64,000 nt of DNA from Candidatus Saccharimonadota bacterium (lineage in GTDB: Bacteria > Patescibacteriota > Saccharimonadia > Saccharimonadales > JACDBH01), in assembly GCA_013694995.1 (NCBI GenBank), contig JACDBH010000001.1:2145-66144 (forward strand), read 5' to 3'. Under the pieces are notes generated by a model, which was not told the DNA's origin, made no database searches, and saw only the letters and a program-made list of their open reading frames with translations. Below, piece after piece: positions 1-45,133 of the stretch. Within the stretch, counting starts at the first letter, position 1. Each line of letters opens with the position of its first letter. The translations under genes were made by a program, and so were the position numbers.

Positions 1-1817
1 TTTAACAATATCCAATGATCGGCTGGTGTTTCGGGTGTGGCTTTGTGGCGGCCATCGTAATTATCGCCTATTGTATCTTCCACGAAACGGGCTATATTCC
101 AGAGTTTATTACAGAAATTACGTGCGGCATCTATTTTGCTGGGATCGTAGGCGGCACTGAGTCCTGGACTGCGGCCCGAGATAATACCCATTCTGAGGGC
201 ATCTGAGCCGTGCGATGCAATCACCTGTTGTGGGTCTAAGACGTTGCCTAAACTCTTGCTCATTTTACGTCCGTCTTCACTTCTAACCATGCCGTGCAAG
301 TAGACGTTCTTAAAGGGCACAACACCTGTGACATACAAACCTAAAGCTATCATGCGGGCTACCCATTGGTACAGTATGTCGATACCCGTTTCCATCAAGT
401 CGTTCGGGTAAAAGCGTTTGAAGTCCGGGTTGTCAGGATAGTCCAACGTCACAAACGGCCAATGGCCGGAGCTGAACCATGTATCAAACACATCGGCATC
501 ACGCCGGTAAGTTTTGCCGTCAAGCTCGATAATCTCCTGGTTGGCTCGGTCATCGAATATCCAATCATCCGGATCCTCGGTGTTCTGAAAGGCGGGGATC
601 GGTATACCCCAGGCAATCTGTCGGCTAATGTTCCAGTCTTTGACAGTTTCAAGGTAGGTAATTGTCTGCTCTAATTTCTGGGTGGGATGAAAAGCAATTT
701 TATTGCGTTTCAACTCCTTGATAGCAGGAGCGGCCAGGCGCTTCATGTCTATGAACCATTGGTCCAGCAGCATTGGCTCGATGACCGTGCCGCACTTATA
801 GCAGACCCCTACCCTGTTGCGGTAATTTTCGTCAATTTTTTCAAGCAAGCCTTTGTCTTTTAGGGCTGCGGCAACTTTAATACGGGCTTCTGCGACCGGC
901 ATGCCTTCAAACTGCCCTGCCCTATGGTTCAACATCCCGTCGTGGTTAATAACGCGGATTGCTTCAAGGTTATGGCGCTGGGCGATCTCCCAGTCGTTAA
1001 AATCATGAGCCGGTGTTATTTTAACCGCCCCTGTTCCAAATGCCGGATCAACGTACTGATCAGCGACGACCCGGATTTCAAACGGCCCATTGAGCCCTTC
1101 GGCGGTGATAACTTTGCCAATAAATTCTTTGTAGCGTTTGTCATCAGGGTGGACTGCAACGGCAGTGTCTCCGAATTTAGTCTCCGGGCGGGTAGTGGCA
1201 AGAGTGAACGGGCCATATTTCAAGTAATAAAGCGGACTGGTACGTTCCTCGTAGCTAACTTCGATGTCGGCGAAGCCCGTACGGTGGAAAGTACAGTAAT
1301 TCACAAGACGTTCACCCCTGTAAATGAGCTTGTCCTCCCACATTTTCTTAAAAGTACCATATGTGGTTTTTACGACCTGTTCATCCAGGGTGAACATTGC
1401 CCTGCTCCAGTCAACGCTAGCCCCCATAGCTCGTACCTGTTTTTCCATATTTCCCCGGTTGGCTTGGACGAATTCATAAATTCGGGCATAAAGTTCATCA
1501 CGGGAGAAATCAAACCGACTCTTCCCTTCTTGGGTGAGTTGTTTCTCATACACTACCTGGGTTTCGAAGCCGGCATGGTCTGCACCCGGTAAAAACAGTG
1601 CTGACTTGCCTTGCATACGCTGATAGCGTACAGCTATGTCCTGCAAGGAGTTATTGAGTGCATGGCCGATATGAAGGTTGGCATTGGCGTTTGGGGGTGG
1701 CATGACAGTGACAAATGGCTCGCCGCCTTCTTTGGGTTTGAATGCCCCACTCTGCTCCCAGAGGTCATATATCATTGCTTCATACTCTTGAGGATCGTAG
1801 GTTTTTCCTAGTTTCAT
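1..1817 (-). CDS. valS: valyl-tRNA synthetase, N-terminal ~605 codons; 3' end lies beyond the left window edge
   Basis: Absent from the ORF track because no stop lies in-window. Manual translation from ATG 1817-1815 gives MKLGKTYDPQEYEAMIYDLWEQSGAF...VMPPPNANANLHIGHALN (class I HIGH motif) ... VPFKNVYLHGMVRSEDGRKMSKSLGNVLDP (KMSKS; Met codon 263-261). The frame stays open to position 1. Confidence 0.9.
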   Translation of the reverse strand, partial: MKLGKTYDPQEYEAMIYDLWEQSGAFKPKEGGEPFVTVMPPPNANANLHIGHALNNSLQDIAVRYQRMQGKSALFLPGADHAGFETQVVYEKQLTQEGKSRFDFSRDELYARIYEFVQANRGNMEKQVRAMGASVDWSRAMFTLDEQVVKTTYGTFKKMWEDKLIYRGERLVNYCTFHRTGFADIEVSYEERTSPLYYLKYGPFTLATTRPETKFGDTAVAVHPDDKRYKEFIGKVITAEGLNGPFEIRVVADQYVDPAFGTGAVKITPAHDFNDWEIAQRHNLEAIRVINHDGMLNHRAGQFEGMPVAEARIKVAAALKDKGLLEKIDENYRNRVGVCYKCGTVIEPMLLDQWFIDMKRLAAPAIKELKRNKIAFHPTQKLEQTITYLETVKDWNISRQIAWGIPIPAFQNTEDPDDWIFDDRANQEIIELDGKTYRRDADVFDTWFSSGHWPFVTLDYPDNPDFKRFYPNDLMETGIDILYQWVARMIALGLYVTGVVPFKNVYLHGMVRSEDGRKMSKSLGNVLDPQQVIASHGSDALRMGIISGRSPGLSAAYDPSKIDAARNFCNKLWNIARFVEDTIGDNYDGRHKATPETPADHWILL

Positions 1818-7118: not shown

Positions 7119-7132
7119 TAGACCTCATAGGC

Positions 7133-7162
7133 AAACAATAAAAAACCGCCTTATTTGGCGGG
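7133..7162 (-). terminator. intrinsic terminator (minus strand) after repeat copy 1
   Basis: CCGCC (7146-7150) / GGCGG (7157-7161) stem with a 6-nt loop, followed on the minus strand by TTTTTTATTGTTT. Confidence 0.65.
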
Positions 7163-7183
7163 CCGAACGTAAGTGGGGTAAAT

Positions 7184-7289
7184 GCGGGCTTGGTTTTTAT
7201 AGATATTGGAGTAATGGGGTGGGGGTGTATCGCAAACGCTAAAGCGCCTGCAAACGATTACTACGACAATAACTTTTTAAACCAAGCCC
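7184..7289 (-). repeat. 106-bp structured repeat, copy 1 (candidate 3'UTR sRNA / MITE-like element)
   Basis: Identical at all 106 positions to 7778-7883. 11-bp terminal inverted repeats GGGCTTGGTTT / AAACCAAGCCC. Lies between the stop of ORF 7350-7679 and a minus-strand terminator. Confidence 0.85.
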
Positions 7290-7349
7290 TAGTGCCCAGC
7301 AGGGTAGTGGACGCCATTGTCCATCTATGCCTGCCGGGCCTAAAGGTTC

Positions 7350-7679
7350 CTACTTCTTCATGCTTGCCAGCCAGCCTTGGATGGCGCGACGGATATCGTC
7401 ACCGTATTTTGCCAGGCGTCCTTGTGTACTGCGGCTGTTCGGGTCCATGCCTCCAAAGGAGACATAGAAGCTGGCTGCTTCACCACTCGGCGTGCAGGTG
7501 CACAGGTAAACATTTGATACGTGCTTGCACACTTTTGAAAGTGCCGACCCCAAGTTCTTGGCATCTGACTCACCGATAGGTTGTACGGTGCGAAAGTATT
7601 GCCGCGGACTTGGATTGACTGTCCCCAAGGGGCTCATCACCGTAGTGACGAACGTGATACCCTTTGTCATTGTTTGCAT
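7350..7679 (-). CDS. hypothetical protein (109 aa)
   Basis: ATG 7679 preceded by GGGAG 8 nt upstream and an extended -10; no recognisable domain. Confidence 0.55.
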   Translation of the reverse strand: MQTMTKGITFVTTVMSPLGTVNPSPRQYFRTVQPIGESDAKNLGSALSKVCKHVSNVYLCTCTPSGEAASFYVSFGGMDPNSRSTQGRLAKYGDDIRRAIQGWLASMKK

Positions 7680-7718: not shown

Positions 7719-7727
7719 ATTATAGCA
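7719..7727 (-). promoter_or_regulatory. extended -10 promoter element TGcTATAAT (minus strand)
   Basis: Minus-strand TGCTATAAT immediately after the upstream terminator T-run and ~40 nt upstream of ATG 7679. No good -35. Confidence 0.4.
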
Positions 7728-7728
7728 T

Positions 7729-7750
7729 AAAAAAACCGCCTCTACGCGGT
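7729..7750 (-). terminator. intrinsic terminator (minus strand) after repeat copy 2
   Basis: ACCGC / GCGGT stem (7735-7739 / 7746-7750) with a 6-nt loop, followed on the minus strand by a run of 7 T (one in the stem). Confidence 0.55.
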
Positions 7751-7777
7751 ATAGGGGGAGCTCAAAATGGGATGGGG

Positions 7778-7883
7778 GCGGGCTTGGTTTTTATAGATAT
7801 TGGAGTAATGGGGTGGGGGTGTATCGCAAACGCTAAAGCGCCTGCAAACGATTACTACGACAATAACTTTTTAAACCAAGCCC
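7778..7883 (-). repeat. 106-bp structured repeat, copy 2
   Basis: 100% identical to 7184-7289 (offset 594 bp); flanks diverge at both ends. Lies between the stop of ORF 7950-8435 and a minus-strand terminator. Confidence 0.85.
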
Positions 7884-7949
7884 GGAAGCCGGCAGAGCAG
7901 AGAAGACAACGCTGTCTTCAGAACTCTGACCGGTATCCGTTCCTTCTTC

Positions 7950-8435
7950 TCAGCCGAAGCTGTGTGATACGAGGCCGTGTCCGCCCTTGCTGCTGGTCGC
8001 CATCGCGTTCATGAGCTTGCCAACTGGGGCGTTGTGCTCTTCGATCAGCAGGTCGAGTTCGGCATGGCCGAAGTTTTGGGTAGACTCACAAACCATGAGC
8101 ATGAACTTACGGACGACCTCTTTGGCCTGTTCGTCGCTGGTGACTGCATCGCTCATCTCGATGATGAGGAAGTGCTCGCCGCCGTTGATGTCGATGATTT
8201 CCGCGATGCCGCGCCGCTTGCGGAGCAGACCCAGAAGCATTTCTTGTGCATACGGTGAGTTGACCGGCGCATCCGTCCAGAGACGAACTGCGTAGGTTTG
8301 ACCCCCGTAAACCTGTTGTATGTTGAAGGAACCGAGTTTGTTCTCGTACACTTGCACTTCCTTTATAAGGTAGTGGGTGGATTGGATATCCCGATGGGAT
8401 TGCAGAATAATACGCTTAAACTGCTTATTTTTCAA
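7950..8435 (-). CDS. hypothetical protein (161 aa)
   Basis: ORF with a TTG start (first start codon after the upstream in-frame TAG) and no obvious SD. Balanced composition; no recognisable domain. Confidence 0.45.
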   Translation of the reverse strand: MKNKQFKRIILQSHRDIQSTHYLIKEVQVYENKLGSFNIQQVYGGQTYAVRLWTDAPVNSPYAQEMLLGLLRKRRGIAEIIDINGGEHFLIIEMSDAVTSDEQAKEVVRKFMLMVCESTQNFGHAELDLLIEEHNAPVGKLMNAMATSSKGGHGLVSHSFG

Positions 8436-10870: not shown

Positions 10871-12520
10871 ATGGCAAAAAAAGTATTTTATGATGAAGAT
10901 GCGCGCCGCCGAGTATTAGGTGGTGCCCAGATTTTATATGAAGCGGTCAAGACAACCATGGGCCCTAAAGGCCGCAACGTGGTCATTAGCAAGAGCTACG
11001 GCAATCCGACCGTCACCCATGATGGAGTCACAGTAGCCAAAGGCGTGGATATCGCCGAAGTAGACGACGAGACTTTAGGTTATAAAGTTGGCGCTGAGCT
11101 TATCAAGCAGGTTGCTAATAAGATGAATGACGTTGCCGGTGATGGAACCACCACCGTAACGGTACTTACGTATCATATGCTTTATGAGGCCAACAAACTG
11201 ATTGCAGCTGGCCACAACCCTATGCTGCTGCGCAAAGGCTTGGAAGCTGCTGCGCACGATGTAATTGCCGCTCTTGATGGTCTGAAAGAAGATATCCAGG
11301 GCAAGAAGAACAGGGTAGCTGAAGTTGCAACCATTAGTGCTGGCGACAATGAAATCGGCAATTTGATTGCTGATGTAATCGACAAAGTCGGCAAAGACGG
11401 CGTCGTGACAGTTGAAGAAGGCCAAGGGTTGGCACTTGAGTCTGAGGTTGTCGAAGGATTTACTTTTGACCGTGGGTTTGTCAGCGCCTACATGGTGACT
11501 GATACGACTCGCATGGAGGCCGTATACGAAAAGCCGGCAATACTAATCACTGATAAGAAAATCAGCAGTGTCCAGGAGTTCCTACCAGTACTTGAAAAGT
11601 TGGCCCAAGCCGGCAAAAAAGACTTGGTATTGATAGCTGAAGATGTCGAAGGTGAAGCACTGGCAACACTGGTGTTAAACCGACTAAAAGGCGTCTTTAA
11701 TACTATTGCAATCAAGGCTCCTGCTTTCGGTGACCGCCGCAAAGATATACTCAATGACATAGCAATCCTCACCGGCGGAGAGGTTATTACCGAAGACCGA
11801 GGTATAACATTCGAAAACGCCGAGCTGTCGATGATTGGTACTGCCCGCAAGGTGATTGTTACTAAAGATGAAACCACTATTATCGAAGGCGCTGGTTCGT
11901 CCGCTGAGGTCAAAGCCCGCATTGACCAAATCAATGCTCAGATTGCAGCCGCCAGCTCGGAATACGACCGTGAAAATCTTGAGAAGCGCCGGGCAGCATT
12001 AAGCGGCAAAGTCGCCGTTATTAAAGTTGGCGGTGCAACCGAGACCGAAATTGAAGAAAAGAAATTTCGCGTTGATGACGCAGTCCATGCCGTAAAAGCC
12101 GCCTTGGACGAGGGTATCGTCGCCGGTGGGGGTGTGACGCTGATTAATTTGTCAACTGCAGTCAAAGACGATCCGAAGGATGATTCTTCCATTACAGCCG
12201 GCAAGAGCATATTGCGTAGTGCGCTGGAACAACCTTTTCGCATATTGTTAACCAACGCAGGATTAAATGCCGACGAATGGCTGCCACAAGTTAAGAAAGG
12301 CAAGCTTGGCCAGGGCGTTAATGTTAATGACCCAAGTAAGTTAGTCGATCTCAAGGCTGCAGGTATTGTTGACCCGGCTCGGGTAACTAAAGAAGCCTTG
12401 CAGAATGCCGCTAGCATTGCCGGTACGGCCATGACCATGGGGGCACTGGTAGTTGATGTCCCAGAAACCAAATCAGCTCCTGATATGAGCGGAATGGGTG
12501 GCATGGGCGGAATGATGTAA
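10871..12520 (+). CDS. groEL: chaperonin GroEL
   Basis: 549 aa with AGDGTTTVTVL and VAGGGV motifs and a C-terminal GMGGMGGMM tail. Confidence 0.97.
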   Translation: MAKKVFYDEDARRRVLGGAQILYEAVKTTMGPKGRNVVISKSYGNPTVTHDGVTVAKGVDIAEVDDETLGYKVGAELIKQVANKMNDVAGDGTTTVTVLTYHMLYEANKLIAAGHNPMLLRKGLEAAAHDVIAALDGLKEDIQGKKNRVAEVATISAGDNEIGNLIADVIDKVGKDGVVTVEEGQGLALESEVVEGFTFDRGFVSAYMVTDTTRMEAVYEKPAILITDKKISSVQEFLPVLEKLAQAGKKDLVLIAEDVEGEALATLVLNRLKGVFNTIAIKAPAFGDRRKDILNDIAILTGGEVITEDRGITFENAELSMIGTARKVIVTKDETTIIEGAGSSAEVKARIDQINAQIAAASSEYDRENLEKRRAALSGKVAVIKVGGATETEIEEKKFRVDDAVHAVKAALDEGIVAGGGVTLINLSTAVKDDPKDDSSITAGKSILRSALEQPFRILLTNAGLNADEWLPQVKKGKLGQGVNVNDPSKLVDLKAAGIVDPARVTKEALQNAASIAGTAMTMGALVVDVPETKSAPDMSGMGGMGGMM

Positions 12521-12565
12521 GAATTTTAGGGAAATGACACCATTTCCAAATACAAATTAGAGATG

Positions 12566-12596
12566 AAAAAGAGCCAGAGAAGTCTTGGCTCTTTTT
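12566..12596 (+). terminator. intrinsic terminator after groEL
   Basis: AAAAAGAGCCA / TGGCTCTTTTT 11-bp stem with a 9-nt loop, ending in a T-run. Confidence 0.75.
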
Positions 12597-12669
12597 CATC
12601 CATGAAGGATATTCTTGCATAATAATCTAAAATGTAGTATTGTGTATTAATTATAGGAGTTAGTAAGTT

Positions 12670-13164
12670 ATGGCATGGTTCCGCCGCAAAAATGTTGATC
12701 CATCAGTCTTACCTGAAGTAGACAAATATTACACTGCCGAGCGCCGCGAGCGTACCGGTTTAGCGTGGCTTTTGGCGCTTGTATCAATTGCCGTAGTCGC
12801 CGCTATTATAATCGCATTATTTTTAGCAGGCCGGTTTATCTATAGCCGGATTGTCGATAAGCCCGATGATGTAGCAACTACCCAGGGCGTATCGGACCCA
12901 CAAGCCCCAAGCTTCGATGGCAATCCATCAGATAATAGTAGTAGTGAGCCTGAAAGTTCTCAGAACGGCTCTACACCTGCTATCACTGAGAATAATAATG
13001 ATGCCGAAGTAAACCCCGCTTCTCCAGGCACTTCCCCGGCTACACCTGTAACGGGTGACGACTCTTTGCCTAGCACCGGTCCTTCAAGCCTCGTCGCTGT
13101 ATTTGCAAGTGTCTCGACAGTTGCCGCAGGTGCCCATTACGCCGTTACCCGCCGCAAACAATAA
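12670..13164 (+). CDS. small LPXTG-anchored surface protein
   Basis: 164 aa with an N-terminal TM/signal-anchor segment and a Ser/Pro/Asn-rich middle. The C-terminus has LPSTG, a hydrophobic stretch and an RRKQ tail, which is a sortase sorting signal. Confidence 0.65.
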   Translation: MAWFRRKNVDPSVLPEVDKYYTAERRERTGLAWLLALVSIAVVAAIIIALFLAGRFIYSRIVDKPDDVATTQGVSDPQAPSFDGNPSDNSSSEPESSQNGSTPAITENNNDAEVNPASPGTSPATPVTGDDSLPSTGPSSLVAVFASVSTVAAGAHYAVTRRKQ

Positions 13165-13212: not shown

Positions 13213-13767
13213 CTAGTTATCTTTGTGCTGAGTAAAGTAAGTTATTTCGTTTACGACGTCCAATAAAGCTTTGGCTCGCTTTTTCTCATCGACAATTGCT
13301 TTGGCGGCTTCGTAGGCTGTACGAACCAGGTTTTGATCGTCTGTGGCTTGGAGCATCATCATAGTGATATGAAATTTTTCTTCAGGAGACTGCTCTAAAT
13401 GGTCAATAATGGGCGAAAGCTGCTGGAGGGCTTGCTGTTTAATGGCTGCCAGATCTTCATCAGCAACGGGGGAGGCAGGGATATTAATTGGCGCCGGAGG
13501 CGATGTATTAACCGAAACCGGTACCTGAAATCCGTCTTGTGCGGGAGCTATGGGCGGATCGGTCATTATGTAGTTATTGGATGCTTCGTTGTTATCCATC
13601 TGGGGCGCCCCTTGGGACAAAACATTATCGACAGACTGCTGCATGACCTGGTCGTCAGTGCCTTGCGGCATCGGATTATTCATAAATTGCCGGTCGTTTG
13701 GCATTCCGGACTGGTCATCAGCTGCCGGTGCCGCCTGGTTATTTCGGTCGTTTCCAAACATGCCCAC
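13213..13767 (-). CDS. hypothetical Gln/Pro/Asn-rich protein (184 aa) with a helical C-terminal region
   Basis: ORF with GTG 13767 (AAGGGG 7 nt upstream) or ATG 13761 as the start; no recognisable domain. Confidence 0.55.
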   Translation of the reverse strand: MGMFGNDRNNQAAPAADDQSGMPNDRQFMNNPMPQGTDDQVMQQSVDNVLSQGAPQMDNNEASNNYIMTDPPIAPAQDGFQVPVSVNTSPPAPINIPASPVADEDLAAIKQQALQQLSPIIDHLEQSPEEKFHITMMMLQATDDQNLVRTAYEAAKAIVDEKKRAKALLDVVNEITYFTQHKDN

Positions 13768-13920
13768 CCCATTACCCCTTATTTTAATTCAAGTGTTATT
13801 ATTTATAGTCTAAATATACCATAAGCTTTTTAGAAAATAGAAATTAGGGGTTAGAAACTAGAGCTCAAAATGCTTATACTAATTATAAGTTACTATTTTT
13901 CAGTTTTAAGCGGAGGCGTT

Positions 13921-15852: not shown

Positions 15853-17091
15853 TTATTCGTAGCGCAGTGATTCTATAGGATCTTTGCGTGCTGCTTTGAC
15901 GGCGGGGATTGTACCAAAAATTATGCCCACAATTGCCGATACGCCAACGGCGAGGGCTACAATCTGCCAGGTCACGGCCGGCTGTAGGTCAGTAGTAATC
16001 CGAAGCAGGGCATTGCCAGCTAGAGCCACGATGATTCCGACAATCCCGCCAACGGTGCTAATAACTGCTGCTTCAATTAAGAACTGATGGTAAATTTGCC
16101 GGTTGGTAGCGCCCAAACTCTTACGGACGCCGATTTCGCGTGTTCGCTCGGTAACATTCACGAACATAATATTCATTATTCCGATGCCTCCGACCAGCAG
16201 GGATATGGCAGCGATTCCCGCAACAAAAGATGTGGCAATCGCCACAGTATTTCGGGCTACTATGGCGGTTTCGTTGCCTTTAAGTACTGTAAAATCTTGT
16301 TGATTGCCATGGTTTTTTAGTAGGAGGGCAGTGGTTGCTTCGGCTATTTGCTCAGCCGAAACATCATCTTTTGGGGTAATGAGCAGCTGGAAAATCGGCG
16401 GGTTAGCAGAGGTAATACTTTGAGCCGTCGTGTAGGAGATAAAAATGGCTTTATTGAAATCGGTAACAGCGCTGAGCGGATTAGTTTTGAACTCGTCAAA
16501 AATGCCGCCGACAACAAAATCATGCCCTCTTATCGTGAGTAGTTTGCCCAAAGGAACATTCTCATTAAACAGTTCTTCGGCAACACGCTTGCCGATAATG
16601 GCCACGCGCCGGCTGGACGTCGAGTCTTGGAAAAACCCGCCGTAAACTACTTTTTGATTTATTATTTCCGGTAGTTTAGCAGTTGTTGCGACAACAGTAG
16701 CTTCGGGATAGCTCTCGCCCTCGAAGTTAGTTGCAAGCCCGGAAACCGTACTTAGAGGCACGACCGTGCCCGCGTTTGGTAGTTTGCCGATTGCCTCATA
16801 ATCCTGGTAGGTGAGGGTATTGACACCCAATGAAGCCAGATAATTAACGTCAGTAATAACCCCATCGGCCGACCGCTTGACGATCTGGCCGGAGCGAACT
16901 GTTACCAGGCTGTCATTGGAAGTCTGGTTAGTATCCGCAACCTGGCGTCTAATCCCTTCCCCCAAAGAAATCGTTAAGATAACAGATGAAACCCCGATAA
17001 TTATGCCCACCATAGTTAGTAAACTGCGCAATTTATTGCTGCGGATAGATTGCAGCGCCATGCGAGCGTTGCTGTTGAGTAGTAAGGTCAT
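15853..17091 (-). CDS. ABC transporter permease, MacB/FtsX type
   Basis: 412 aa with an N-terminal TM, a large extracytoplasmic domain and a C-terminal FtsX-type TM bundle. Overlaps the ATPase gene by 4 bp. Confidence 0.85.
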   Translation of the reverse strand: MTLLLNSNARMALQSIRSNKLRSLLTMVGIIIGVSSVILTISLGEGIRRQVADTNQTSNDSLVTVRSGQIVKRSADGVITDVNYLASLGVNTLTYQDYEAIGKLPNAGTVVPLSTVSGLATNFEGESYPEATVVATTAKLPEIINQKVVYGGFFQDSTSSRRVAIIGKRVAEELFNENVPLGKLLTIRGHDFVVGGIFDEFKTNPLSAVTDFNKAIFISYTTAQSITSANPPIFQLLITPKDDVSAEQIAEATTALLLKNHGNQQDFTVLKGNETAIVARNTVAIATSFVAGIAAISLLVGGIGIMNIMFVNVTERTREIGVRKSLGATNRQIYHQFLIEAAVISTVGGIVGIIVALAGNALLRITTDLQPAVTWQIVALAVGVSAIVGIIFGTIPAVKAARKDPIESLRYE

Positions 17092-18176: not shown

Positions 18177-19670
18177 TTACTCAGCCGGCACTGTAACTGT
18201 AATCTGATTGCTGTAATTGTCACAGGCGCCGTCAGAATATCGGCACACTTTTACATAGTACTTGGTTTCAGTAGATTTGGCTGCAAGGTACAAGCCTGTT
18301 TGTCGTTCGTCTGGTCCCACAAACTGGGCGTCTGACCCGGGGTAGACGGGGCTACCAGAAGTATTCCAAACAACCTTAAAGCCGTCACCATCGATATAGC
18401 TGCTGGTCGTCGACCAGGTCACCTGATACTTACCGTCTATATAGCCGGCATAAGACACGATAATCTCCGTTGCGGCTGTAAGTGATTTATTCTTGAAAAT
18501 TACTGAGATACTTACAACACTTTTATTACCGGTCTTGTCCTTGGAGATAACTTCATACTTTGAAGTGCCGATAATACCTGCAACACTATCGCTCTCAAAA
18601 CTTCCGTCAGCCGCGACGGTAACAGGAATAGGGGCACTGCCTGATACGGATACGGATTGAACTGTTAGAGTAGCACCAACCTCAGTCTTGCCCTTAAAGA
18701 CAACAGAACTGCTACTGTCTGTGGAATCAACAGTAATGGTAGAGCCATTTGACGGGGAAGTGAGTGATAGCTCAGGCGAAGAGATGTCCTTTAAAAAGCC
18801 TAAGTGATCTTTGAAATCATCGATTTTCTCATCCTCGTCACGACACCATTTGACGAAACTATCAGTTTTGATGGCTTCTATATCCAAAGGTGTGATAGTT
18901 CCATTTTTTGTAGTATCAGCGGCGATCTTAACAAGCAGTTTCTCGCCTTCTGCAATGGTCTTGTCTGAAGTTCCTTCGGTTACTTTGCTCTCATATACCT
19001 CGACGGATTCCTCGTCCCCGGTCGTAGTGGTCTTAAAAGCTGTGCCAAGGGCGGTATAAGTGCCATTATTGGTTTCAATAGTGTAAGTGCCTTCGATTGA
19101 GGGGCTGACACGGCTATAGACATGGCCATTGTTCTGCATGATGACAATCTCATCGGAGTTCAGGCTGGTCAGAATTATTTCGGTATCACCGTTAAGCCGG
19201 GCAAAACTGCCGTTTTCTAGGGCGATTGTTGCCCGCGAAGTGGCGCCGGCAGTGCGGATAGCATCACCCTCAGCGAGGATCGTATTAGTAGAAATTTCTG
19301 TGTATTCACTACCATCTTTTAGCTCGACGGCGCCTTCAATATAACTTACGGTTGCGGAAACCTTAGTGACTACTTTGTCTGAGGAGTTTTGATCCGCTGT
19401 TTGTTTTTGAGAGTTTGACTGGCTCAGCATGGCTATGGTGCCGCCGATAACAATTATTAGAGCAACAGCAACTATCGCGAATAATTTTTTGTGGGCTATT
19501 AGTTTATCTTTTAGCCTGGCTGATTTAGCAAGTAGCAACTTTGGGCGTGATACCGAAGGGGACTTCACTTCACTCTCTACTGCGGGTGCCTCGGTTTTAG
19601 CAATATCTAACTCCTCGGGCTTTTGGTTCTCAGTTTCCATTTGAGGTTCATCTTTTGAAGGGTCATTCAT
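18177..19670 (-). CDS. membrane-anchored FecR-domain protein with Ser/Thr-rich Ig-like C-terminal region
   Basis: Single TM (LFAIVAVALIIVIGGTIAML) and a FecR-like segment GDAIRTAGATSRATIALENGSFARLNGDTEIIL. ATG 19670 is preceded by GGTGAG; the ORF-track TTG at 19736 is less likely. Confidence 0.5.
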   Translation of the reverse strand: MNDPSKDEPQMETENQKPEELDIAKTEAPAVESEVKSPSVSRPKLLLAKSARLKDKLIAHKKLFAIVAVALIIVIGGTIAMLSQSNSQKQTADQNSSDKVVTKVSATVSYIEGAVELKDGSEYTEISTNTILAEGDAIRTAGATSRATIALENGSFARLNGDTEIILTSLNSDEIVIMQNNGHVYSRVSPSIEGTYTIETNNGTYTALGTAFKTTTTGDEESVEVYESKVTEGTSDKTIAEGEKLLVKIAADTTKNGTITPLDIEAIKTDSFVKWCRDEDEKIDDFKDHLGFLKDISSPELSLTSPSNGSTITVDSTDSSSSVVFKGKTEVGATLTVQSVSVSGSAPIPVTVAADGSFESDSVAGIIGTSKYEVISKDKTGNKSVVSISVIFKNKSLTAATEIIVSYAGYIDGKYQVTWSTTSSYIDGDGFKVVWNTSGSPVYPGSDAQFVGPDERQTGLYLAAKSTETKYYVKVCRYSDGACDNYSNQITVTVPAE

Positions 19671-42714: not shown

Positions 42715-43379
42715 TGAAACGCTGGCTTAAAGATAATTCACTCAGCTTAGTTATGGGGATTTTATTCTTGATTTTCTTAAGCGGACATAGCCTGACAGGG
42801 CAGCGGCTTTATAACGAAGAACAATTGGAGCATGGCCAGCAGAAAGTAACATATTCTGAATATATAGGCTCTAGTGATTTCATTGAATCCGTCTTTGAAA
42901 ACTGGGAAAGTGAGTTCTTGCAGATGGGGGCATACGTAGCGCTGACGGTATTTTTATACCAAAAGGGCTCGGCTGAATCGAAAAAACTAATTGGGCGTGA
43001 GGCTGTGGATCAGAAGCCTAAGAAATCAAGTAATAAATATGCTCCATGGCCGGTACGTAAAGGTGGTGTGGTACTGAAGATATACGAAAATTCGTTGCTC
43101 ATCTCGTTTATATTACTTTTCCTCATGTCATTCTTCTTGCACGCTTATGGTGGGGCGCAGGCGACAACCGAAGAGTATATAGCACACGGCGAGGATCGTG
43201 TGGTCAGTACAGCGGAATACATGACAACTTCTAAGTTCTGGTTTGAATCATTCCAGAACTGGCAGAGCGAATTTTTAGCTGTATTTTCTATTGTCGTATT
43301 GAGCATTTGGCTCCGCCAAAAGGGCTCACCGGAATCCAAGCCTGTTAATTCGGCGTATTCGGAAACCGGCAGTTCATGA
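42714..43379 (+). CDS. DUF6766-like membrane protein (internal duplication)
   Basis: Two repeats of the ...FENWESEFLQMGAYV...KGSAESK / ...FQNWQSEFLAVFSIV...KGSPESK pattern. The ATG overlaps the polA stop (TAATG). Confidence 0.6.
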   Translation: MKRWLKDNSLSLVMGILFLIFLSGHSLTGQRLYNEEQLEHGQQKVTYSEYIGSSDFIESVFENWESEFLQMGAYVALTVFLYQKGSAESKKLIGREAVDQKPKKSSNKYAPWPVRKGGVVLKIYENSLLISFILLFLMSFFLHAYGGAQATTEEYIAHGEDRVVSTAEYMTTSKFWFESFQNWQSEFLAVFSIVVLSIWLRQKGSPESKPVNSAYSETGSS

Positions 43380-43963
43380 TAAAAGCTATAATATTTGATT
43401 GTTTTGATGTTGTTTTAAGTGACGGGTTTGAGGCTGCGTATGCTAAGTTTGGCGGAGACTCAACTAAGGATAGGGAGTTTTTACACCAGCTAATCCAGGA
43501 CGTTTCGAGTGGCAAGATTGACGGTTCGTCATCTATAATCGCACTGCGGCTTGGTATTACAGAAGCTGAATGGCGAGAAGCTAATTTTGCCGGCTATGTC
43601 ATCAATACGCCGCTGCTGGACTATGCCTTAGAATTAAAAAAGACATATAAGCTCGCAATGTTATCCAACGTCGGCAAGGGCGGATTGAAGCGTTTTTTTG
43701 ACCCTGGTTTTTTAGAACGCTATTTTGATCCTGTAGTTGAGTCAGCCGCTATTGGTTATGCTAAACCCGAAGCCCGCGCCTACGAAATCGTAGCAGGTAT
43801 GCTAGGAGTTCGCTTAGACGAATGTGTATTTATTGATGATAGGCAAGAGTACGTGGATGGCGCCACTGCTGTGGGCATGCAGGCGGTACTTTATAAGTCG
43901 GTCAGCCAACTCCGAGATGATATAAATAATATTCTTGAGGAGGGAGATGAAAATGGAAAATAA
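43376..43963 (+). CDS. HAD-IA family hydrolase
   Basis: MIKAIIFDCFDVVL (motif I, DxF variant), MLSNVGKG, FIDDRQEYVDGA. ATGA overlap with the upstream gene. Confidence 0.75.
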   Translation: MIKAIIFDCFDVVLSDGFEAAYAKFGGDSTKDREFLHQLIQDVSSGKIDGSSSIIALRLGITEAEWREANFAGYVINTPLLDYALELKKTYKLAMLSNVGKGGLKRFFDPGFLERYFDPVVESAAIGYAKPEARAYEIVAGMLGVRLDECVFIDDRQEYVDGATAVGMQAVLYKSVSQLRDDINNILEEGDENGK

Positions 43964-44561
43964 TGAAACTTTCGATACTCATAATCGTTCAGCCAAACAA
44001 CTTGCCAAATACTTTAAAGGCATTGGCCCGCGTATAAGGCATATTGAATTCGCGCTTGAACAGGCTGGTAAAAATGACGGTTCTGCAAGCGTATTAGAAA
44101 TTGGGTGTGGCGATGGACGGGATGCTGTTGAAATAATAAAAAGATGCCGTTTGTATACGGGGATCGATTATTCAGTAGGCCTAATTGGTCTTGCTAAGGA
44201 ACTTTTACCGGCAGCGGATTTCAGGGTAGTGGATATGCAGAATTTTGATTATCCGTATAAAACCTATGATGTAGTTTTTGCCTTTGCCTCAATACTACAT
44301 ATAGACAAGGCAAGCCTACGCGATCTTATGAATGTTGTAGCCAGATCTCTAAAAATTGGCGGTATATTTTATATTTCAACTAAACAAGCTGACCGCTATA
44401 AAAAAGAATGGAAAGAGGACAAACACGGCCATCGTTTGTTCTATTTCTATAGTCCAAAACTTCTTGCACGACTAGCAGCGAATAATTTTGAGGTAGCTTC
44501 GGTAGAATTAGAAGTCAAAAATGGTAAACCATGGATAGAAATGGCATTACGAAGAAAATGA
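43947..44561 (+). CDS. class I SAM-dependent methyltransferase
   Basis: VLEIGCGDGRD motif I. ATG 43947 is preceded by GAGGAGGGAG; the ORF-track TTG at 43935 is less likely. Confidence 0.8.
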   Translation: MKMENNETFDTHNRSAKQLAKYFKGIGPRIRHIEFALEQAGKNDGSASVLEIGCGDGRDAVEIIKRCRLYTGIDYSVGLIGLAKELLPAADFRVVDMQNFDYPYKTYDVVFAFASILHIDKASLRDLMNVVARSLKIGGIFYISTKQADRYKKEWKEDKHGHRLFYFYSPKLLARLAANNFEVASVELEVKNGKPWIEMALRRK

Positions 44562-45133
44562 TTAAAGCTATAATCTTTGATTGTTTTGGAGTGCTAGCCG
44601 AGGACGGCTGGACGCCGTTTAAGCGTAAATATATTATTCACGATTCAAAACTTGCGAAGGAAGTTGCGGATCTAGGCAAGCGAACCGACAAAGGCATGCT
44701 TGACCATGAGGAAATGATTTCAGAAGTCGCAGAGCTTGCACATGTTGACCCCGCAATTTTACGCGAGGCCGTCGGTAAGAAAATACCGAACGAAGAGCTA
44801 TTTCAATACATTAAAAAAGAATTAAAGCCTAAGTACAAAATCGGGCTGATGAGCAACGCTAACTACGATGTTGTTAGTGAACTTTTTACATATGATCAGG
44901 CAAGTTTGTTCGATGCAACCGTGATGTCATTTGAATCACGTATGGTTAAACCTGACCCGCGCATGTATAAACTGATGGCCGAGCGGCTGGGTTCGGAGCT
45001 AAAAGAGAGTGTGTTTATCGACGACCAAGAACGCTACTGCATGGCAGCGGAGGAAATCGGCATGAGTTCGATACTTTACACATCACCCGAACAATTAAAG
45101 ACTGAACTGAGCGATATCCTAAAAATTATTTAA
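44558..45133 (+). CDS. HAD-IA family hydrolase (paralog of 43376-43963)
   Basis: MIKAIIFDCFGVLAEDG, LMSNANYD, FIDDQERYCMAA. ATGA overlap with the methyltransferase stop. Confidence 0.75.
   Translation: MIKAIIFDCFGVLAEDGWTPFKRKYIIHDSKLAKEVADLGKRTDKGMLDHEEMISEVAELAHVDPAILREAVGKKIPNEELFQYIKKELKPKYKIGLMSNANYDVVSELFTYDQASLFDATVMSFESRMVKPDPRMYKLMAERLGSELKESVFIDDQERYCMAAEEIGMSSILYTSPEQLKTELSDILKII

Follow-up and report, generated by a model that had tools for sequence, protein, structure and literature searches.

The DNA analyzed here is a stretch of 64,000 nucleotides (nt) from Candidatus Saccharimonadota bacterium (assembly GCA_013694995.1, contig JACDBH010000001.1, positions 2,145 to 66,144 of the forward strand), referred to below as the window. 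Its minus strand carries two copies of a structured RNA element and a gene encoding a 184-amino-acid (184-aa) protein. An earlier note on this DNA had proposed that the C-rich strand of the element pairs with the Shine-Dalgarno (SD) sequence and the start codon of that gene. Analysis of both loci revealed a 16-nt match that is real and locally significant. Judged from sequence, the gene is a candidate small-RNA target, and the element is not a demonstrated regulator.

The RNA module and the 184-aa gene

The element had been described as a 106-nt unit. This unit is real, but it constitutes only one domain (D2) of a larger conserved structured RNA. In the 5'→3' direction the whole module consists of a hairpin (D1), D2, a C-rich tail, and an intrinsic terminator (Table 1). 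Eight copies of the module were found in six genomes of one Saccharibacteria clade, at the transcript ends of small genes. The D1 hairpins of the eight copies are 54 to 63 nt long, differ in sequence, share the same shape, and are mostly closed by CGGA:UCCG. The minimum free energy (MFE) of D1 corresponds to z scores of −6.0 to −8.2 in all eight copies, with 0/200 shuffles equally stable. In D2, the base stem (GGGCUUGGU/ACCAAGCCC) is invariant, the central hairpin is conserved together with two of its G·U pairs, and the G-poor, C/A-rich 3' arm varies in sequence and length. The tail reads CCCCAYCCCA in five of the eight copies. The two copies of the window each have a separate short terminator hairpin with a U-run, 22 to 27 nt past D2 (7161→7146 in copy A and 7750→7735 in copy B), and the TGCTATAAT promoter of the next gene comes after the copy B terminator. 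A U-run comes straight after D2 in related contig L001 and straight after the short tail of D2 in L127. A stable hairpin with a U-tract, the signature of an intrinsic terminator or 3'-end module, was thus found at the end of the transcription unit.

The two small genes that precede the copies (7350-7679 and 7950-8435) are unrelated to each other. Across the genomes, members of at least three unrelated small-gene families precede the module, whose locus is a hypervariable block between PGM/GroES and arginase. Comparison of copies A and B revealed 106/106 identical positions in D2, 27/58 in D1, and 26/58 in the tail and terminator. Since D2 is identical while D1 and the tail and terminator have diverged, D2 must have been homogenized as a unit. 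The homogenization is sharp-edged and affected D2 alone, either by gene conversion or by replacement of the whole unit.

Transcription of the element from the minus strand, as the earlier note had assumed, is supported by several features of the sequence. Both copies are preceded by the stop codon of a gene on the minus strand and followed by an intrinsic terminator on that strand, and the orientation relative to the upstream genes is constant across all related genomes. Read from the opposite strand, the central hairpin would have A·C in place of its two conserved G·U pairs, and the 3' arm is G-poor on the minus strand. A strand call from MFE was uninformative, as the antisense strand folds equally well or better in 6/8 copies. 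A coding plus strand (open reading frames [ORFs] 7190-7579 and 7772-8014) was rejected: these frames are antisense to minus-strand genes that have homologues elsewhere, and the indels in the element alignment are not multiples of three. No promoter-like site was found directly upstream of D1, which argues against an independent small RNA. Therefore, any small RNA from this locus would be derived by processing from a 3' untranslated region (3'UTR).

The gene at 13213-13767 had been called an orphan. This label is wrong: a protein search revealed at least 769 homologues at E≤1e-3, all of Saccharibacteria type wherever the source names the organism. The exact protein is H0V99_00095 (P0001) of a Candidatus Saccharibacteria metagenome-assembled genome. 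Members of its family, which is conserved in Saccharibacteria, combine an N-terminal half of low complexity with a conserved C-terminal domain. The true start is most likely GUG 13767 and not the deposited AUG 13761, because the N-terminus encoded by GTG GGN ATN TTT GG is kept in related contigs L001, L002, L003, L127, and L131 and the second ATG is missing from the homologues in L002, L127, and L131. The initiation region is unusually G-rich, with the SD GGGG and the run GGG-GUG-GG, the latter typical of the family. The extended −10 element of the promoter is conserved in L001, L002, and L131 and looser in L127; from the position of the conserved CTTATGGTAYATTGTA box, the leader would be about 40 nt long.

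Such a leader appears to be uncommon in the window. A −10-like hexamer lies 5 to 12 nt ahead of the start codon in about 20 of the 70 predicted genes, and an SD-like 4-mer was detected at only 13/70 predicted start regions. These counts suggest that many mRNAs of the window are leaderless, among which the target gene, with its putative leader and SD, is an apparent exception. Related contigs show conserved synteny: PGI divergent from the target gene, a membrane protein, GroEL/GroES, PGM, the variable small-gene block, and arginase.

Table 1. Positions of the module, its upstream genes, the target gene, and homologous elements (L numbers denote related contigs)
Feature	Position	Strand	Details
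D2, copy A	7184..7289	minus	base stem GGGCUUGGUUU/AAACCAAGCCC; central hairpin UUGCAGGCGC-UUUA-GCGUUUGCGA; 3' arm C/A-rich; seed CCCACCCCAUUACUCC at 7223→7208
D2, copy B	7778..7883	minus	106/106 identical to copy A; seed at 7817→7802
D1, copy A	7290..7342	minus	hairpin of ~54 nt directly 5' of D2, just past the stop of gene 7350-7679; z −6.3, 0/200 shuffles
D1, copy B	7884..7939	minus	hairpin of 57 nt, closed by CGGA:UCCG, just past the stop of gene 7950-8435; z −6.3
C-rich tail and intrinsic terminator, copy A	7136..7183	minus	tail AUUUACCCCAC...; terminator CCGCC-AAAUAA-GGCGG-UUUUUU
C-rich tail and intrinsic terminator, copy B	7726..7777	minus	tail CCCCAUCCCAUUUUGAGCUCCCCCUAU; terminator ACCGC-GUAGAG-GCGGU-UUUUUUU
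Full modules of the window	7130-7345 and 7720-7945	minus	
Small gene H0V99_00060, 109 aa	7350..7679	minus	transcript ends in copy A; L131 homologue also precedes a copy of the RNA
Small gene H0V99_00065, 161-aa ORF (annotated 133 aa)	7950..8435	minus	transcript ends in copy B; L001 and L132 homologues also precede the RNA
Target gene, 184 aa from GUG 13767	13213..13767	minus	NCBI annotation: 182 aa from AUG 13761
Proposed target site GGGGUAAUGGGGUGGG	13763..13778	minus	SD GGGG 13778-13775, 7-nt spacer, GUG 13767-13765, GG of codon 2
Extended −10 promoter element TGGTATATT of the target gene	13813..13821	minus	within the conserved CTTATGGTAYATTGTA box
Homologous element, L002	12510-12688		full module 12449-12700
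Homologous element, L127	15994-16098		full module 15930-16115
Homologous element, L001	16113-16228		full module 16055-16225
Homologous elements, L131	18629-18794 and 19187-19384		full modules 18560-18805 and 19150-19395
Homologous element, L132	~612-752		full module 610-790

Complementarity between the module and the start region

Direct reading of the minus strand gave GGGGTAATGGGGTGGG at 13778→13763 and CCCACCCCATTACTCC at 7223→7208 of the element (7817→7802 in the second copy), which confirms that the mRNA site can pair with the seed as claimed. As in the earlier note, 13 consecutive Watson-Crick pairs were counted, and 16 pairs when one G·U is included; the predicted energy of the 16-bp duplex is −31.2 kcal/mol. 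The window contains the 13-mer GTAATGGGGTGGG exactly three times, at 7211 and 7805 on the plus strand and at 13763 on the minus strand. The geometry of the claim holds as well. The predicted duplex ends 1 nt ahead of AUG 13761 and spans GUG 13767 and the SD GGGG, so that it would occlude both the SD and the start codon; it spans both candidate start regions, whichever of the two is used. The pairing is known from sequence comparison and from energies predicted for the window of one strain.

The earlier expectation of about 0.002 chance occurrences is valid only for a 13-mer specified in advance. It is too low because any of the approximately 94 to 170 13-mers of the RNA could have matched. By blastn, E is about 0.2 per 13-mer match when any 13-mer of the RNA is compared with 2×64 kb, and a second 13-mer match, without meaning, is present at 13154. 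For an RNA of approximately 200 nt against 128 kb, about 0.2 to 1 match of 12 to 13 nt is expected per window; two others were seen, both meaningless. The 12-mer CATTTTGAGCTC, found on the minus strand at 7754-7765 in the copy B tail and at 13861-13872 between the target gene and PGI, is also a match at chance level.

Hybridization was compared with shuffled controls by an accessibility-aware scan that considers stacked helices with no more than two single mismatches and combines ViennaRNA duplex energy with opening energies from unpaired probabilities. The tests were applied post hoc, to one window, and covered the start regions of its 70 predicted genes. The complementarity exceeded chance, with p≈0.005-0.01. 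A raw RNAduplex ranking of the full-length RNA against 40-nt windows was uninformative and was discarded, as long gapped duplexes with GC-rich coding windows dominate it. The matched sequence is not a common variant of the ribosome-binding site (RBS): GGGGTGGG occurs three times in the window, and GGTGGG was found at 2/71 start regions.

The earlier caveat that part of the seed would have to open proved right, as one half of the seed is helical and the other lies in an internal loop. The half CCCACCCC is located in the internal loop and is unpaired with a probability of 0.58, and the half AUUACUCC is helical, with an unpaired probability of 0.0003. Opening of the whole 16-mer seed would cost 5.1 kcal/mol, and opening of the mRNA site would cost 8.1 kcal/mol.

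Conservation of the pairing and its interpretation

The earlier note had named lack of conservation in relatives as an outcome that would speak against the pairing, and this outcome was observed in the relatives available. Four relatives carry both loci within one contig (L002, L127, L001, and L131, the last with two RNA copies, a and b), and the extended pairing was not kept in any of them. In L002 the pairing is reduced to CCCACC:GGUGGG, with a net energy of −8.0 kcal/mol reached by 87/200 shuffles (p 0.44) and rank 4/18 for the target site among the neighboring start regions of the same contig. In L127 the pairing is CCCACCC:GGGUGGG and involves the tail instead of the arm (−4.9 kcal/mol; 37/200 shuffles, p 0.19; rank 6/28). 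The second RNA copy of L131 offers CCCAUCC:GGGUGGG (−7.3 kcal/mol; 58/200 shuffles, p 0.29; rank 4/23). Only weak, unrelated sites were detected in L001 (161/200 shuffles, p 0.80; rank 3/24) and for the first copy of L131 (200/200 shuffles, p 1.0; rank 9/23). The extended complementarity therefore appears, from these comparisons, to be specific to the strain of the window. The target gene has its closest relative in contigs L003/L004 of ENA ERZ923176 and ERZ27235157 (67% identity), where the start region reads GGGGAAAUAGGGUGGG. The two substitutions in this site would lower the duplex with the RNA of the window to −19.9 kcal/mol. These contigs are approximately 1 kb long, and the RNA locus lies off them. 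An exact look-up with GroES for near relatives revealed only same-strain assemblies that are 100% identical to the window. Since two further assemblies are identical, they provide reproducibility but no variation. One of them, L135 (GCA_020063845.1), is 100% identical to window positions 595-20861. The other, L136 (Logan SRR11719867), starts at window position 7854 and is an independent assembly of the same strain, with its contig break inside copy B, as an identical repeat would lead one to expect.

The 3' arm of D2 varies more than any other part of the RNA, and in L001 the arm is not C-rich and has no C-run. The sequence motifs of the arm recur in the family: CCCACCCC(A) is also present in the RNAs of L002 and L127, and UUACUCC is matched by UAACUCC in L127 and L132.

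At slightly less than even confidence, we favor the explanation that the match is fortuitous, a C-rich arm meeting a G-rich RBS, and that the module acts mainly in cis at transcript 3' ends. A fortuitous match is favored because the pairing in relatives is no better than that of shuffled RNAs, because each half of the seed is typical of the family and is present in genomes with non-matching start regions, because no part of D2 is less conserved than the 3' arm, and because a helix sequesters half of the seed and the mRNA site is costly to open. A role in cis is favored because the module always lies between a stop codon and a terminator and because the D1 hairpins differ in sequence and share a shape. 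With the U-run straight after the module in L001 and L127, the module behaves there as a terminator hairpin. The primary role of the module would be to form and protect transcript 3' ends, and it may insulate neighboring transcription units in a compact genome; an effect in trans would presumably be absent. The two family-typical motifs of the D2 3' arm, CCCACCCC(A) and UUACUCC, would have come into register by chance with the G-rich initiation region, which happens to offer a matching 4-nt spacer, to yield the 16 bp.

Several observations weigh against this explanation. The target site ranks first of the 70 start regions, with a net energy of −17.3 kcal/mol, and the next best sites reach −9 to −10 kcal/mol. 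When the RNA was shuffled with its dinucleotides preserved, 1/400 shuffles reached the observed net energy and 3/400 the observed duplex energy at any of the 70 start regions; against the start region of the target gene alone, 0/200 shuffles equaled the observed pairing. The C-rich loop of 8 to 13 nt is accessible and seed-like (unpaired probability of 0.58 for the 8-mer and 0.30 for the 13-mer). The non-coding GGG ahead of GUG recurs in most members of the clade, and the RNAs of 4/5 genomes share its complement, CCCACC(C). The relatives are distant, their target proteins being 44 to 58% identical to that of the window, and the lack of conservation among them therefore speaks only weakly against an interaction of recent origin. 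For the target, a conserved leader of about 40 nt and an SD are predicted, which would be unusual in a genome where many genes look leaderless. The role of the module as a stabilizer or terminator in cis is itself putative.

An alternative is strain- or lineage-specific antisense repression of the 184-aa protein by the module RNA, a tentative possibility that we regard as roughly comparable in likelihood to a fortuitous match. The module, or a processed 3' fragment ending at the terminator, would accumulate as a small RNA. The unpaired loop ACACCCCCACCCC would nucleate on GGGGUGGG over the GUG start, and pairing would extend into AUUACUCC, opening part of the D2 helix and covering the spacer and the SD. 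The resulting 16-bp duplex would block 30S binding and repress translation, and the two identical copies would double the dose. Antisense repression agrees with the exact 16-bp match and its energy, with the first rank and the p value given above, with the accessibility of half of the seed, and with the scarcity of the motif among start regions. It also agrees with the orientation and the terminators of the module and with the sense-strand-specific G·U pairs; a G-poor arm with a C-rich tail beside a terminator is typical of small-RNA architecture, and the target has a conserved 5'UTR and SD where many genes of the window look leaderless. A core of 6 to 7 nt, CCCACC(C):GG(G)UGGG, recurs at the same mRNA position in L002, L127, and the second copy of L131. 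On the other side, the extended pairing is missing in 4/4 relatives with both loci and the short core is at chance level. The motif lies in the tail instead of the arm in both L127 and the second copy of L131, and none exists in L001. The match was found post hoc, and the RNA would depend on processing of a 3'UTR. No validated small RNA was known from Saccharibacteria as of 2022 (bioRxiv 10.1101/2022.03.25.485537).

Common descent without function would also account for the match: a short inverted piece of the initiation region would have been captured into the hairpin arm through recombination or repair, or the reverse, and spread by gene conversion to both D2 copies. The similarity on the plus strand runs weakly past the 16 nt (79% over 28 nt), and the identity of the two D2 copies (106/106, with flanks at ~45%) indicates that sequence was clearly copied between loci. 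However, the extension beyond 16 nt is not significant (nhmmer E=28; blastn reports the 13-mer alone), and both halves of the seed are present in RNAs of other genomes with non-matching start regions, so that the arm predates the match. We consider this origin very unlikely.

Relation to known RNA and DNA elements

The homologous elements that profile searches revealed in related contigs have the orientation of the window copies and lie in the corresponding syntenic block; L132 is one extra contig that emerged from protein searches with the two upstream small genes. In Rfam, cmscan of the whole window at the gathering threshold detected only a tRNA and no family for the element. Searches in E-value mode, which covered the element regions of the window, L131, and L002, gave just scattered, inconsistent weak matches, and neither 6C RNA (RF01066) nor RsaE/RoxS (RF01820) matched at E≤10 in these sequences. 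Scans of the small neighboring proteins against Pfam, PADLOC, PHROGs, and NCBIfam revealed nothing informative. A metagenome-contig scan with the central-hairpin and stem pattern and a viral-contig scan each returned two chance matches.

Small RNAs with C-rich seeds that occlude the SD include RsaE/RoxS of Firmicutes, 6C RNA of Actinobacteria, and the Staphylococcus Rsa RNAs with UCCC motifs. The module resembles them in its unpaired C-rich stretch within a structured RNA, its intrinsic terminator, the predicted duplex over a G-rich SD and start, and the proposed mechanism of translational occlusion. Unlike in these RNAs, the C-rich stretch lies in an internal loop or 3' arm of a long hairpin instead of apical loops, conservation of the seed sequence across the family is lacking, the location is a 3'UTR, and the host belongs to Saccharibacteria, a phylum of the candidate phyla radiation (CPR). 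Given the negative Rfam results at the gathering threshold and at E≤10, membership in the RsaE/RoxS and 6C families is excluded by the covariance-model searches.

The small RNAs CpxQ, SroC, DapZ, and MicL are derived from 3'UTRs and share the terminator of the parent mRNA. Like these RNAs, the module lies between a stop codon and the terminator of the mRNA, has no evident promoter of its own, and carries a putative seed near the terminator. It differs from them in that it follows at least three unrelated genes and is duplicated within its locus; its processing and accumulation are putative. D1-D2 may represent an undescribed family of 3'UTR-embedded regulatory RNAs in which the variable arm is a fast-evolving antisense seed, locked here on the SD and GUG of the target; we consider this unlikely. 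If it were true, the base stem shared with hairpins of Collinsella and Varibaculum, described below, might reflect a common protein partner or cross-phylum exchange, as these genera belong to Actinobacteria, the host phylum of Saccharibacteria.

Repeated palindromic elements of 3'UTRs include REP/BIME, ERIC, the Correia elements of Neisseria, and the pneumococcal BOX/RUP elements. The module shares with these the imperfect long hairpins, the location in transcribed intergenic regions downstream of genes, homogenization within a genome, and a likely role in the stability or termination of mRNA 3' ends. In contrast to these repeats, it is present in one or two copies per ~20 to 64 kb examined, at one syntenic hypervariable locus; it has two domains with an invariant base stem, and no terminal target-site duplication is evident.

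At the DNA level, the element could be a recombination or mobile site that marks gene cassettes, similar to an integron attC site or a miniature inverted-repeat transposable element, in which case the match to the start region would be irrelevant. As in integrons, small, unrelated, co-oriented genes each precede an imperfect hairpin of ~100 nt in a hypervariable locus, and a 594-bp unit (the 109-aa gene and one D2) lies between two identical direct repeats of 106 nt. The sequence of the base stem does not vary, and hairpins with the same stem are present in Collinsella and Varibaculum. The attC cores are nevertheless absent: the terminal boxes 5'...TTGGTTT / AAACCAA...3' have a polarity opposite to R'' RYYYAAC and R' GTTRRRY. 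Identity with attC was rejected, as the ends GGGCTTGGTTT...AAACCAAGCCC on either strand have GTT at the 5' side and AAC at the 3' side. None of the nine neighboring proteins scanned (0/9) contains a recombinase or transposase domain, and no integrase was detected among them. The arrangement of the RNA after the 109-aa gene is common to the distant L131 and thus old, not the result of a recent insertion. Furthermore, only two copies occur in the 64-kb window, and the conserved G·U pairs indicate constraint on RNA and not on single-stranded DNA. A DNA site is the least probable of the explanations weighed here.

Reduced genomes of epibiont Saccharibacteria encode few regulators. A family of structured 3'-end RNAs together with a strain-specific 16-bp match to an RBS provides a concrete case in which post-transcriptional control in this phylum could be tested at low cost. 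If the regulatory reading were true, the pair would be the first small RNA and target proposed for a CPR bacterium. If the match is fortuitous, it would serve as a calibration case: a C-rich arm and a G-rich start can produce a perfect RBS match of 13 to 16 nt that vanishes in relatives.

A scan of genome contigs with the base-stem pattern was dominated by Collinsella hairpins, with no Saccharibacteria among the matches listed. These matches include covarying hairpins of 98 to 110 nt in Varibaculum cambriense and in representatives of more than 100 species of Collinsella (L005-L124; e.g., L009 3950-4076 and L093 414-511). The hairpins have the same 11- to 12-bp base stem, GGGCTTGGTTT(T)...(A)AAACCAAGCCC, and have no match in Rfam. 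In Collinsella, CCGGG(G/A)CC precedes or extends the stem, resembling the D1-D2 junction, and in L009 the hairpin lies between convergent genes. The likeness of the stems may reflect homology or coincidence. Elsewhere in the window, a 31-nt direct repeat with 94% identity (43376-43406 and 44558-44588) is located at the starts of two ORFs and is consistent with tandem paralogues.

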